From Candidatus Latescibacterota bacterium (GTDB taxonomy: Bacteria; Latescibacterota; UBA2968; UBA8231): a stretch of 64,000 nucleotides of DNA. Positions 23,806 to 27,566 of this stretch are shown here, in pieces. The notes beneath the pieces were generated by a model, which saw only the letters and a list, made by a program, of their open reading frames with translations, had not been told where the DNA came from and did no database searches. The position numbers and the translations under genes are program-made. Within the stretch, counting starts at the first letter, position 1. The number at the start of each line of letters is the position of its first letter. The stretch spans positions 1,568,001-1,632,000 of the forward strand of contig OZ241867.1 in assembly GCA_965203175.1 (NCBI GenBank), in the 5' to 3' direction.

Positions 23806-24405
23806 ATGCAGATACCGGACCCACAACTCATAGCGCAAATAAAAGAACGCGATGAACGCGCATTCCAGCAGTTCTTTGAGCGCTATCGGGAGCAGATCCA
23901 CGATCACGTGCGCCGCATCGTTCGCGACGATGCGAGTGCCAACGATGTAGTGCAGGAGGTTTTCTTGCGAGTGTGGAACCGGGCCGGCCAATGGAGCGGT
24001 CGAGGGGCTGTAGCTGCTTGGCTGTTTAGCATCGCCACTCATCTCTCCCTGACTCACCTGCGCACCGTGCGAAGGCGGCGGGAACAGCGGCTGGAAATGC
24101 TGTCTGAAACCGTGGAGCAGGAGACGCAGCAAGTGCCCGAATGGATGATTGAGGCGGCGTCCGAGCGCCCCGACGCCCAAGTGGAACGGGCCGACCAGCA
24201 GCGCTGGTTGCGGCGACAAGTACAAGAACTGTCCGAGGACAAGCGCGAGGTTTTCCATCTGATCTACGACGCCCAAGTAGAAGTGCGGGACGCCGCCGAC
24301 CGCTTGGGCATTCCCGAAGGCACCGTAAAGTCGCGGCTGCACCACGGCCGCCGCCAACTCTCACAGGCTTGGCAGGCCATCCATAACCCGGAGGAGCATG
24401 AATGA
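23806..24405 (+). CDS. ECF (sigma-70 group 4) RNA polymerase sigma factor
   Basis: Region 2 (AFQQFFERY, DVVQEVFLRVW, WLFSIA) and region 4 (LGIPEGTVKSRLH); likely ATG at 23806. Confidence 0.92.
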   Translation: MQIPDPQLIAQIKERDERAFQQFFERYREQIHDHVRRIVRDDASANDVVQEVFLRVWNRAGQWSGRGAVAAWLFSIATHLSLTHLRTVRRRREQRLEMLSETVEQETQQVPEWMIEAASERPDAQVERADQQRWLRRQVQELSEDKREVFHLIYDAQVEVRDAADRLGIPEGTVKSRLHHGRRQLSQAWQAIHNPEEHE

Positions 24406-27400
24406 CATTGAATCTCGACGTACCTTGGCATAGGGAGTCCTTTGACCTTTTCGTCCACCAGCGACTGCCCCAGCTTTTGGGCGAGCGCTTGCCGCTGGCC
24501 GATTATCAAGTCGAACAACAGGACTCCTATACTTTTTCCATTAAACTGAGCTTGGGACTCGGCGATGCCCCGGTCGAGGTTGAGTACCGAGATTTGCCTC
24601 GGCCCGACCGCGATGGTCTTTTCCACATTGAAGGCAACTACCGGGTCGTGGTCCCCTATCCCGACCGGCGCGAACTCGCTCAAGCGCGGATTCTGTGCGT
24701 GGGCGAGCAGCTCTACGACTTTATTGACCAAAGATTGGAAGCGGCTCCTGAGCAATTGGCTTGGGATGGCGACTTAGTGCGGAGTTGGCTGCCGCTAGAC
24801 GCTTGGATGCGCGACTTCCACTTGGAGGCAACTTCCCAGTACCTCCAGGCGACCAACTGGCTTGACCGCTATACTCATCTGCGGCGGCTGACTTTGATCC
24901 CCATCGTTGACGAGCCTTTTGTCGACCAAGACGTTTTCCCCGACAGCCAATACGGCCTAGTGTGCCCCCACTGCACTCCCGAGGGACCCAATATCGGCCG
25001 AGTGCTAGAAGTAGCCCGCGGTGCCCGCATCCGCGACGGCAAGCTCGAACGGATCGACGAAGCGCCCGACAGCATCTTGGGTTTTTCGGCCTCCATGGTG
25101 CCCTTTCTCGAACACGACGATACCAATCGCGCTCTGATGGGCATCAATATGATGCGCCAGTGGACGAGCGCCGCCGATACCGCGGCACCGGTCCACGCCA
25201 CGGGTTGGTTCCGCCAGCAGCACGATCAGCGCTTGGCCTCCAAGGGCCACAAACCCGAACCAGCCCTAGTGCAGACGGGATACGAGCCGGAGGCCGCCGA
25301 CTTTTGGGGCGGGTACAATCTGCTGACCGCCTTCGTCATGTGGGATGGGGACACGTTTGAGGATGGCTTAGTCATTAGCGAGTCGGCCGCGGCGCGGATG
25401 GACTTTCCCGCCGCAGTGGGGGTGGGCGACAAACTAAGCAACCGCCACGGTGCCAAAGGAGTGGTGGCGCGCATCCTGCCCGACGCCGACATGCCGCAGT
25501 TGCCCGACGGTACGTCGGTAGAGCTCATTTTGAGTCCGACCAGTATGGTCTCGCGGCTCAACTTCGGCCAGCAGCGCGAGGCGGTCATGGGTCGCATTGC
25601 CCGAGCCGAGGGGACTCCGGCGGTGGTGCCGCCTTTCCAAGCACCCAGCGAAAAAGTGTTGAAAGCGCGTCTGGTTGAGGCGGGACTGCCCGAAGACGGC
25701 ATGGAGCAACTGACCCTCAAAGGCGCAAAGCTGCCCTATCGCAGTACCGTGGGTTGGGTGTACTGGGGTCTTCTGGCGGCCCACACTGCGGCCGAGCACT
25801 TGGAAACCGCGGTGATAGGAGTCGGCGGACCAGCGCTCGACATGATGGCCTACGGAGCTTTGAGCGAGGCCGGGGCCGTAGCCAATATCCACGCTTTGTT
25901 CAACACGGCCGCGGCTGAGCGGCCCGACGCCGATGCGCTAGGCCAGCGTTTGGCTTCTGACCCAATATCCCCGTCTCCGCCTCCGTCTCCACGCTTTGCT
26001 CTATTGCAGCAGTTGTTGGGTATGGCCGGGATACGGGCCGAGTTGGCGGGCGGGGCATTGCGCTTTGCCTTTGCCGAGCCGAAGGGATTGACCTTGGCTC
26101 GCCCCGTGTCGCACCCGTGGGCACCGGGACGCCAAGTAGGGACGGTGGGAGATCCCGGCGCTTTGCCTGCGGGGATCGAGTTCGACCCGATTCGAGGCTG
26201 CTACGAGGATTTGGTCGAAGCTAATACGCGTTTGCAGCGCATCATCGATAGCGAAGCGCCCGAGGCTCTGGTCGGGCCAGCAGTGGCACAGGTGACCCAA
26301 CGGGTGGAGGATTTTTTTATCGCGTTGTTGCGCCCGGAGCACCTCCACTTTCAAGCAAGACCGCTGTTTAGCGGCCGGGCCGCGCTTGTCTCTGGTTTTG
26401 AGTTGGAGCTCGACCAAGTGGGCCTACCCGAGGAGATGGCCTGGAATTTGTTCGGGCCTCAGGTAGAGCGGGAGATAGGTCGCGCCGAGGAAGTGGCGCA
26501 GCGTTCGCCCCGAGCGGCTAAGGTTCTGGACGCGATCATGGAGCGCTCGTGGGTGCTGCTGTACAGCGCCCAGCGGGTGCTAGTTGACGATGGCCCGGCG
26601 TCCACCGCAGTGGTGGCCTTTCGTCCGCAGCGTTTGGCCGGGGCCGCAGTGCGCGTCCATCCGCGCATTTGCCGACTGATGGAGCTAGATTTCGACGGCG
26701 ATCAGATCGAGGTGTTTTTGCCCCTCACTGAGGAAGCCCAGGCCGAAGCCGAAACTGCGCTGTCGGTGGCCGGGCACATACAGCGCGACGCGGATATATG
26801 GCGCTACGTGACCGACAACTACCACGGCATGATATGGGGCTTGGCGCAGCTTTGCCGCACGGAGGAAGGCCGCGCCGAAGTGGAACGGCTGACCGGAGTG
26901 GCCGTGGATGGCAGTCGGCTGTTCGTCAAGCACGACCTCAACCGCTTATTAGCTCAGGTGCTGCAGCGCGAGGGCCTAGAGCGAGCACTGGAGGTACTCG
27001 ACCAGCTAACGCGGCGCGGCTTTGAGGTCTGCAAGCAGTCGGGGGCCTCCTTCAATCCCTTCCTCGGTTCGAGCAAGGAGTGGCCTGAGCAACCCGAGGA
27101 AGCCGATTGGGACGAGTGGCAAATGTACAGCGACGAGTTAGTGGCAGCTTTCTACCAGCAGGCCGATTTCGACGACAACGACTTGGGGCCTTTGGCTCTG
27201 TTGTCGCTGTCGGGGGCGCGGGGCAACCAACAGCAGTTGATCCAATACGTGGGCGGCGGTCTGCTCTATCGGGAAGATGGCAGTCTATTCGCTCAGCGCG
27301 GTTGTTGGCGCGACGGCCTGTCGGTAGAGGAAACCAAGGTGCGGGCCCCGCGTGCCTTATGGTGGGGTCTGGCCGCCGCCAACCAGCGCTGGATTGAGGC

Positions 27401-27566
27401 GCAGGAAGCGGCCCAACAGCCCGTCCGTGCCGATTACCACGTTTTGGGCCGGGCCGCCAAGGCCGCGCAGCCGGGCGTAGTCTTTGCTAGAGCGGCTGAG
27501 CGCGGAGAGACCGATCCGCTGACCAGCCTATTCAGCCGGCTCTTTGCAGGGCTACCAGCGAACTAG
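24402..27566 (+). CDS. Miniature single-chain RNA polymerase beta-beta' (RpoB-RpoC)-like fusion protein
   Basis: Ordered RpoB motifs ([60 protein letters not shown].GQ) followed by RpoC motifs (SGRA, [18 protein letters not shown]). ATGA overlap with the sigma gene; GGAGGAG RBS. Confidence 0.9.
   Translation: [1054 protein letters not shown]

Follow-up and report, generated by a model that had tools for sequence, protein, structure and literature searches.

A 64,000-nucleotide stretch of DNA from a Candidatus Latescibacterota bacterium (assembly GCA_965203175.1, contig OZ241867.1, positions 1,568,001 to 1,632,000 of the forward strand; hereafter the window) contains a gene in which shortened counterparts of the RNA polymerase subunits β and β′ are joined in a single polypeptide of 1054 amino acids (aa), here called the mini polymerase. 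It stands directly behind a gene for a sigma factor of the extracytoplasmic function (ECF) type. Our preferred reading, to which we give slightly less than an even chance, is that the protein is a minimal single-chain, two-barrel RNA polymerase derived from β and β′, that it is catalytically competent, and that an ECF-type sigma factor of its own is encoded in the same operon. The module is recognizable by its anatomy, its fold, the conservation of its catalytic residues, purifying selection, the pairing of its two genes and a conserved promoter-like motif.

A single chain built from RpoB and RpoC blocks

The initial annotation of this DNA, made from the letters alone, had described one uninterrupted open reading frame (ORF) with RpoB blocks followed by RpoC blocks. 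Translation, Pfam searches and profile alignment bore this description out. Every motif that it had listed is present in the translation of 24402..27566, and the linker that it had placed near 26045-26085 agrees with the β-to-β′ junction at about residues 545-565 (nucleotides (nt) 26035-26096). The Pfam search proposed with that annotation gave three matches over the curated cut-offs, namely RNA_pol_Rpb2_6 (E 1.2e-31, 110.6 bits, cut-off 23.4; best stretch residues 340-455), RNA_pol_Rpb1_2 (E 8.1e-12, 46.1 bits, cut-off 25.3; residues 736-787) and RNA_pol_Rpb2_3 (E 8.3e-7, 29.5 bits, cut-off 21; residues 146-210).

The host genome consists of one contig of 6.58 Mb, with the mini polymerase gene at C1:1592402-1595563. 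A separate canonical pair, which the annotation had expected, lies elsewhere on the same contig, rpoB (1271 aa) adjoining rpoC (1368 aa) at C1:3922499-3930441, 2.3 Mb from the mini polymerase gene. Among the proteins of this genome, phmmer matched the mini polymerase to RpoB at E 3.6e-48 and to RpoC at E 1.1e-23, and a profile of the mini polymerase family found them at E 1.2e-92 and 7.5e-53, respectively. The closest sequences of solved structure were bacterial β (E down to 2.6e-42) and β′ (3.5e-21). The protein scored far under all NCBIfam cut-offs for rpoB and rpoC (160 bits for TIGR02013, cut-off 801.15; 93 bits for TIGR02386, cut-off 963.5), and its PHROG matches were β-like and β′-like families without an assigned function.

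Domain boundaries were set by comparing a profile of 51 family members, and also the single sequence, with the genome's own RpoB and RpoC. In the profile comparison the parts kept from RpoB were 138-161 (a weak match), 428-539, 606-665, 749-781 and 1033-1267, and those kept from RpoC were 269-485 (with a 25-residue gap at the rudder), 562-782 and 1293-1325 (a weak match, E 0.14). The profile alignment gave no counterpart of RpoB 162-427 (lobe 2) or 782-1032 (flap), of most of RpoC 1-268 (the Zn finger region), or of RpoC 783-1292 (trigger loop and jaw). At the flap junction, residues 334 and 338 of the mini polymerase correspond to RpoB 787 and 1036 in the single-sequence alignment. The sequence of the bridge helix is poorly conserved across the 51-member alignment, and the chain ends 50 residues past it. 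The C-terminal segment (residues 1010-1054) is strongly conserved in the family. Coordinates are collected in Table 1.

An AlphaFold2 model built on the family alignment was confident, with a mean predicted local distance difference test score (pLDDT) of 93.6, a predicted template modelling score of 0.91 and no segment below 50. It was compared with 48,161 chains by VIA-align. Residues 1-549 matched bacterial β (6j9e_C) with Z 20.9 and a root-mean-square deviation (rmsd) of 2.5 over 520 residues at 29% identity, and residues 548-1054 matched bacterial β′ (6edt_D, residues 5-1259) with Z 17.1 and rmsd 3.3 over 489 residues at 26% identity. The N-terminal part alone matched the β-1 domain of T. 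thermophilus (3mlq_A; model residues 5-150, Z 11.2) and the β B1/B2 domains of M. tuberculosis (4kbj_A; model residues 4-140, Z 10.2). Foldseek matched bacterial and plastid β and β′ at E 1e-17 to 1e-21. In a library of viral structures the best match (E 2.3e-17) was a protein without a name, and those with names were mostly giant-virus subunits with E-values of at least 1e-14. In this comparison with core RNA polymerase chains, of the kind that the initial annotation had proposed, the halves of the model superpose on β and β′, and the confident fold includes both barrels and the bridge helix at their expected places.

Catalytic residues were counted in the alignment of the 51 members, which are 33-75% identical to the window protein. 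The five positions of the metal-binding DFDGD motif are conserved in 49, 45, 49, 50 and 47 members (D763 in 49, D765 in 49, D767 in 47). In the GDK..RHG.KG motif of the β barrel, G342, D343 and R348 are present in all 51, K344 in 46 and K352 in 47, and the acidic pair of the FED motif is kept at E320 in 42/51 and at D321 in 46/51. The PEGPN and NMMRQ blocks are likewise retained, and with NADFDGDQ and NRAP the consensus of the family agrees with canonical β′. Of the two possibilities that the initial annotation had raised, an alternative transcription machine or an RNA polymerase mimic, the kept catalytic residues favour an enzyme over a mimic, and on sequence grounds we infer a putative polymerase activity.

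A sigma gene coupled to the mini polymerase

The sigma gene and its promoter-like element, which were absent from the initial annotation, are the most telling feature of the locus. The sigma protein (199 aa) matched Pfam Sigma70_r2 at E 5.8e-15 and Sigma70_r4_2 at E 2.1e-12, and it passed the NCBIfam model TIGR02937 (sigma70-ECF) with 99.7 bits against a cut-off of 42.9. Its stop codon overlaps the start codon of the mini polymerase in an ATGA at 24402-24405, with a GGAGGAG a few bases 5′ of the overlap. A longer ORF called mechanically at 23626-24405 (259 aa), which would overlap the divergent upstream gene, was rejected: orthologues measure 194-203 aa, and relatives carry indels of 1, 11 and 13 bases 5′ of position 23806. 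Since these indels break the longer frame, the true start is the ATG at 23806. The linker motif VPxWMID is unusually conserved, P111 and W113 being invariant in 22 sequences, and the sigma gene is under purifying selection with a median dN/dS (ratio of nonsynonymous to synonymous substitution rates) of 0.117.

The pairing is close to universal. A sigma gene lies directly upstream of the mini polymerase gene at 57 of 61 informative loci overall (three loci being counted twice). Among genome-contig loci of family members with upstream DNA the count is 26/29; one exception has no sigma gene (L017), and in the two others (L024, L038) deletions have removed parts of both genes. The gene is directly upstream in 19/20 further loci of the phylum, the last being G108, where about 2.4 kb is inserted and the sigma gene stands 2.4 kb upstream, and in 12/12 loci of two other phyla. 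No other neighbour, an anti-sigma gene included, is conserved beside the mini polymerase across the loci of several lineages; the flanks hold PhyH dioxygenases, transposases, an RND (resistance-nodulation-division) pump, a GH44 glycosidase or peptidases, depending on the lineage. Pairwise identities of the sigma factors and of the polymerases correlate with r 0.98 (741 pairs) and with r 0.70 among 597 divergent pairs.

A complex of the sigma factor with residues 254-1054 of the mini polymerase was predicted with 'weak support', at a score of 0.43 (runs 0.41, 0.48 and 0.43). The best of three controls scored 0.00, the runs shared at least 38% of contacts, and the partner pLDDT was at least 63. 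In the calibration of the tool, its mark was reached by 58 of 80 solved complexes and by 2 of 110 mismatched pairs, and the passes that scored 0.60 or less comprised only 7 of those 80 complexes, and both mismatches. The pass may only reflect likeness, since sigma with β′ is a textbook pair of solved structure.

One protein of 1214 aa, P0270, which carries the label 'RNA polymerase sigma factor (sigma-70 family)' and belongs to the 90% cluster of P0088, looked like a natural fusion of sigma and polymerase. It was rejected as probably a sequencing frameshift on one 5-kb contig, where the sigma frame is left as sigma-4 begins and reading continues in the ORF of the mini polymerase.

A promoter-like element upstream of the sigma gene

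ECF promoters are marked by an AAC-type −35 and a CGTC-type −10 element about 17 bases apart, and usually drive the gene of their own sigma factor. An element of this kind, TGAACC-N16-CGTC (equivalent to TGAAC-N18-GTC), precedes the sigma gene, and we regard it from its sequence as a putative promoter. Of 30 loci, 28 have TGAAC-N18-GTC in the 200 nt that precede sigma, most copies ending in CGGTGTC; the two misses are an N17 variant and a copy further upstream. The motif also precedes sigma in 11 of the 12 loci from two other phyla. In the window it sits in a block that is invariant among 20 genus-level sequences, and the whole window holds only 2 matches to TGAACN{17,19}GTC against 5.0 expected by chance. 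The second match, at 35379, was rejected as a target, lying inside a minus-strand ORF.

A consensus scan of 23400-28700 found no plus-strand promoter of the sigma-70 type, and terminator-like sites there did not exceed chance. The sole sigma-70-type match in this interval is TTGACT-N16-TATCTT on the minus strand at 23677-23704, directed toward the PhyH gene at 22671-23627. It falls on the blocks GTAAGATACC and GTCAAC, which are kept in four other loci (L011, L012, L014 and L019); the DNA further upstream of these blocks in the four loci is unrelated to that of the window.

Four RNA libraries from three studies yielded contigs that match parts of the operon at 90-99% identity, and two of these contigs span the junction of the sigma and polymerase genes (X17 record 11 and X19 record 25). 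They show nothing on transcription, because the genes on either side have similar coverage and carry-over of DNA is possible. The region 23600-27600 is held wholly or partly by 20 of 24 listed sequencing runs (11 studies), 7 of which hold at least half of the sampled words; the runs labelled as DNA that hold it are mostly sponge, marine or coral metagenomes, and the source sample may be among the runs with the fullest coverage.

Distribution and selection

A word-indexed protein search returned 568 proteins at E ≤0.001 among 8000 scored candidates. Among the 120 matches listed, identity runs from 97% to 43%, nearly all are full length, and the names, where given, read 'hypothetical protein'. 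An exhaustive search of 50%-identity cluster representatives gave 347 matches at E ≤1e-30; among the best 150 of these, 65 are 943-1101 aa long and the rest are mostly fragments, together with three of about 2250 aa. Whole-genome searches found the gene in 66 of 168 genomes of the window's phylum (19 of the 52 high-quality ones), in 21 of 30 genomes of the genus apart from G000, in 17 of 301 sampled genomes of a second phylum (that of G169) and in 2 of 301 of a third (that of G168). Locus record titles name Latescibacterota, Chthonomonadales/Armatimonadia and one Dictyobacter, and the source names of homologues include bins of Poribacteria, Hydrogenedentes and Gemmatimonadota as well. Homologues with the same deletions are present in three phyla.

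Selection on the gene is purifying rather than neutral. Among 19 genus-level orthologues (171 pairs) the median dN/dS is 0.163 (range 0.126-0.206), and none of 15 windows along its length falls outside 0.08-0.27. Relatives carry the same gene on chromosomes assembled as single contigs, and for this reason a chimeric assembly, a concern raised in the initial annotation, is unlikely. Its proposal of a maintained, domain-trimmed derivative of RpoB and RpoC outside the rpoBC operon is thus supported by the homologues with the same deletions, the dN/dS values, the fold and the chromosomes of relatives.

A quick tree of 37 sequences (one truncated row dropped, midpoint root only) groups the mini polymerases mostly according to phylum (3 label changes, compared with 10.9 in shuffles). 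Inside a phylum it mixes taxonomic families, and the genome G071 carries two divergent copies of the module that fall in different clades. This pattern suggests old paralogy or transfer of the gene. Degraded copies occur: L024 and L038 have internal deletions that leave what remains of the sigma gene joined to what remains of the polymerase gene, and G136 retains only the last 300 residues of the mini polymerase.

The ESM Atlas holds two clusters of the family, with 73 and 135 members of about 1006-1026 aa and few taxon records, mostly Chloroflexota. It also holds further clusters of fused Rpb2_6 and Rpb1_2 proteins of 1221-1787 aa with no taxa recorded, and P0261, P0263 and P0266 are larger fused Rpb2_6 and Rpb1_2 proteins of about 2240-2310 aa. 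A broader range of sizes may exist among reduced β::β′ fusions. A metagenome scan with the family alignment, in which the chosen patterns are common to canonical rpoB, placed only 3 of 80 loci (L040-L042) in the family and so added little.

Table 1. Features of the mini polymerase locus (window coordinates; residue numbers refer to the mini polymerase)
Feature	Residues	Position	Strand	Remarks
ECF-type promoter-like element TGAACC-N16-CGTC (= TGAAC-N18-GTC)		23760..23785	+	ends 20 nt before sigma start
ECF-type sigma factor gene		23806..24405	+	199 aa; sigma-2 and sigma-4 domains only (Pfam, NCBIfam)
Single-chain β::β′ mini RNA polymerase gene		24402..27566	+	1054 aa; ATG start; uninterrupted ORF
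N-terminal β-1 (protrusion)-like domain	1-150	24402..24851	+	VIA-align; without lobe 2
β fork/link region (THLRR, NMMRQ)	111-269	24732..25208	+	aligns with own RpoB 428-539 and 606-665
β double-psi barrel without flap insert	295-473	25284..25820	+	RpoB 749-781 joins 1033 onward
FED	319-321	within 25284..25820	+	in β barrel
GDK..RHG.KG	342-353	25425-25460	+	in β barrel
β C-terminal part and junction into β′ (LARPVSHPW)	474-565	25821..26096	+	profile reaches RpoB 1267 of 1271
β′ clamp helices (coiled coil)	592-642	26175..26327	+	model helices 592-616 and 621-642; RpoC 269-310
Switch 2 (FSGRA) and β′ double-psi barrel	653-790	26358..26771	+	RpoC 348-529 (single-sequence comparison); rudder deleted
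Metal-binding DFDGD	763-767	26688-26702	+	in β′ barrel
Funnel/F-loop region with SGARG	797-1004	26790..27413	+	RpoC 562-782; no trigger loop after it
Bridge helix, 30 residues	975-1004	27324-27413	+	model helix after SGARG; aligns with RpoC up to 782
C-terminal segment (with DPL) like the β′ C-terminal conserved region	1010-1054	27429..27563	+	weak match to RpoC 1293-1325

A proposed two-protein module and its alternatives

We propose that the operon would be read from its ECF-type promoter, 20 nt before the sigma start; having the promoter before its own sigma gene, it could amplify its own expression. In bacterial holoenzymes the β′ clamp helices are the main docking site of sigma domain 2, and from the comparative analysis we predict the same role for those of the mini polymerase, so that sigma domain 2 would dock on the retained helices. 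RNA synthesis would take place at the interface of the two double-psi barrels, where the β′ DFDGD motif would hold Mg2+ and the β motifs GDK..RHG.KG and FED would hold the substrate, next to a bridge helix and without a trigger loop. The core would thus be cut down to the surroundings of the active centre (barrels, fork/link, switch 2, funnel and bridge helix) plus the clamp helices. As bases for the two-protein module we name the conserved active site, purifying selection over the whole length, the near-universal and translationally coupled pairing with sigma, and the promoter-like motif. The sigma factor may use the mini core instead of, or besides, the host core, and the pair may transcribe beyond its own operon. 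It is possible, if doubtful, that the module goes as far as an orthogonal second transcription system of two proteins and about 1250 residues, sigma-directed and self-driven, which would work without flap, Zn finger, rudder, trigger loop, α or ω.

Several observations weigh against the catalytic and sigma-directed reading. The mini polymerase lacks the trigger loop, rudder, Zn finger, lobe 2 and jaw, as well as the β flap, to which sigma domain 4 is anchored in canonical holoenzymes. In the clade of the window the sequence at residues 761-768 is ELDFDGDQ, Glu replacing the Asn before DFDGD, the Arg of the NRAP motif (residues 720-735; most members have NRAPT) is missing, and the GQRFGEME block is degenerate; the two stretches of residues lie within nt ~26559-26705. 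The changed Asn and Arg positions correspond to N458 and R425 of E. coli β′, which contact the ribose hydroxyls of the incoming nucleoside triphosphate, and the sugar selectivity of the window clade could be altered. The Asp triad is lost in 2 of the 51 members (P0122 and P0190), and 2 of 51 have DFDGN. TGAACC-N16-CGTC is not enriched genome-wide, with 17 matches against 5-18 for other spacers, and in these regular-expression searches stricter forms of the motif leave only the operon's own promoter, other matches looking like chance, so that no regulon is visible. Finally, one genome (G143, locus L017) carries an intact polymerase of 1047 aa and no sigma orthologue in 4.6 Mb; the search used E ≤1e-15 on a genome that is 93% complete, and dN/dS of its mini polymerase against the window gene is 0.149.

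We consider it rather unlikely, though likelier than the other alternatives, that the sigma factor is an ordinary ECF sigma acting with the host core to switch on its own operon, and the mini polymerase the product of that small regulon, working without sigma in the manner of YonO. Such an enzyme might serve in priming, in the transcription of special templates, or in copying templates that are RNA or single-stranded. The missing flap, which would tether sigma domain 4, and the fixed TGAAC-N18-GTC geometry in 39 of 42 loci, matching canonical ECF promoters, fit a sigma acting with the host core. The intact polymerase of G143 points the same way, the active site is conserved, and the loss of lobe 2 and jaw, the walls of the downstream-DNA channel, would suit unusual templates. 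However, the clamp helices are the only clamp element that was kept, and they are conserved; translational coupling and near-universal adjacency exceed the usual linkage of a regulator and its target; and the prediction of the complex of sigma and mini polymerase did pass, weakly.

That the protein is instead a mimic of RNA polymerase in the position of an anti-sigma factor, buffering the sigma factor or soaking up factors, toxins or phage proteins, appears improbable to us. The gene does lie directly downstream of an ECF sigma gene and overlaps it, an anti-sigma gene is absent, the sigma-docking coiled coil is retained, and no regulon is detectable; the lost or altered triads and the two missing ribose-reading residues of the window clade also suit a decoy. 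Yet a decoy would not need the catalytic residues, which 46-51 of the 51 members retain, and purifying selection acts over the whole length, on both barrels, fork region, switch 2 and bridge helix alike. An artefact, whether a chimeric assembly, a decaying rpoBC duplicate or a recent phage gene, is hardly credible: degraded copies (L024, L038, G136) and a patchy spread over 66 of 168 genomes of the phylum would suit it, but the full-length gene recurs in many independent assemblies, single-contig chromosomes included, with dN/dS of 0.16, genome-like GC and GC at third codon positions (GC3), no PADLOC match and metabolic flanking genes.

Relation to known RNA polymerases

Among the two-barrel polymerases, the mini polymerases appear to be a new family, minimal in size and linked to a sigma factor. 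No description of the family was found in full-text literature searches, which did not cover supplementary tables. With bacterial β and β′ they share the order of blocks, both barrels, fork/link, switch 2, clamp helices, funnel, bridge helix and the C-terminal block, at 26-29% identity over 489-520 structurally aligned residues. In the host, β and β′ are two chains totalling 2639 aa, whereas the mini polymerase is one chain of 1054 aa; unlike rpoB and rpoC, its gene is accessory, and only a minority of genomes has it. Full-length β::β′ fusions (NF007172 and NF011417, attributed to Helicobacter and Wolbachia after the initial annotation) likewise run from an N-terminal β to β′. They span 2839-2890 positions and are the cell's only polymerase, whereas the mini polymerase coexists with rpoB and rpoC; it scored 158.9 bits against a cut-off of 5372 for NF007172 and 150.2 against 4632 for NF011417.

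Smaller single-chain enzymes are more remote. YonO presumably lacks the trigger loop as well. The initial annotation had called YonO-type enzymes far more divergent, and this held up indirectly: the other single-chain enzymes reached only Z 10.2 (QDE-1), 9.5 (P74 gp62), 9.0 (P23-45 gp96) and 7.0 (crAss-like gp66) against the mini model, that is Z 7-10 as opposed to 17-21 for the bacterial subunits, the YonO structure not being among the matches. PolD reached Z 6.6, and these single-chain two-barrel enzymes and PolD are 8-14% identical to the mini polymerase. YonO of the SPbeta prophage is described as a single-chain, proven DNA-dependent RNA polymerase (PMC5467207), and the flap insert as absent from enzymes of its type (PMC7824862). 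YonO-type enzymes resemble the mini polymerase in being single chains of about 100 kDa with two barrels; they differ in being very distant from β and β′ and encoded by phages or prophages, and none is reported with a sigma factor.

A parallel in plan, compared by description only, is Orf6 of the yeast killer plasmid pGKL2. It is described as an Rpb2::Rpb1 fusion of 982 aa in which about half of the parental sequence is lost, carried by a eukaryotic cytoplasmic plasmid and thought to derive from yeast Rpb2 and Rpb1, with homology over only about 250 residues (PMC2919709). It shares with the mini polymerase a β-like::β′-like plan of about 1000 aa, and in that description it has no sigma factor. 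Unlike Orf6 and YonO, the mini polymerase is bacterial-type in sequence, chromosomal and tied to a sigma gene.

In operon layout the closest likeness is to ECF sigma/anti-sigma operons, which likewise have a sigma of about 200 aa (domains 2 and 4), an autoregulatory promoter and an overlapping downstream partner. There the partner is an anti-sigma factor, whereas at the mini polymerase locus it is a polymerase core. The main text of the ECF reclassification (PMC7826278) does not contain the terms RpoB, RpoC, 'DNA-directed RNA polymerase', Latescibacteria or Armatimonadetes.

Flanking DNA

The mini polymerase gene has a GC content of 0.623 and a GC3 of 0.718, resembling the genome (0.590) and the neighbouring genes, and a recent transfer was rejected on this match of composition. 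A defence-system reading was also rejected; PADLOC gave no match for the polymerase and only marginal ones for sigma (E 0.003-0.005), and no phage or defence genes stand beside the locus. Rfam gave no family match over the whole window.

The module is flanked on both sides by genes of PhyH-family dioxygenases, at 22671-23627 and 27580-28428, both on the minus strand. Beyond them lie two GFO/IDH/MocA oxidoreductases and a methyltransferase (28618-31668, minus strand). Among distant Latescibacterota loci, a PhyH gene occurs near L028, and a methyltransferase with a GFO/IDH/MocA gene near L029; the other phyla have none. These neighbours are probably residual synteny. The intergenic interval 28441-28622, which separates the PhyH gene convergent with the module from the GFO/IDH/MocA gene, contains an inverted repeat, GCTCAGCATGAC ... 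GTCATGCTGAGC. Its summed depth is many-fold raised in each of the four RNA-library contig sets (91-322, against mostly below 30), and loose ends are numerous. The interval resembles a dispersed repeat element, and Rfam gave no match there.

Implications

If the mini polymerase is active, a cellular RNA polymerase would work at about 40% of the size of β plus β′ and in one chain, and this would be the first case known to us of a chromosomal bacterial gene pair that supplies a private core for its sigma factor. If it is also sigma-directed, it would be the smallest sigma-dependent RNA polymerase known, and a natural experiment on the minimum of multisubunit parts for promoter-directed transcription. 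The questions that it raises are how sigma domain 4 would be placed without a flap, and whether such an enzyme would escape inhibitors and phage proteins aimed at the deleted parts. If the protein is a decoy, it would represent a new kind of sigma regulator. At 116 kDa it should express easily, which makes the needs of a core, namely sigma binding, DNA opening, processivity and fidelity, testable, and a compact, promoter-specific polymerase of two genes would be of interest to builders of orthogonal expression systems.

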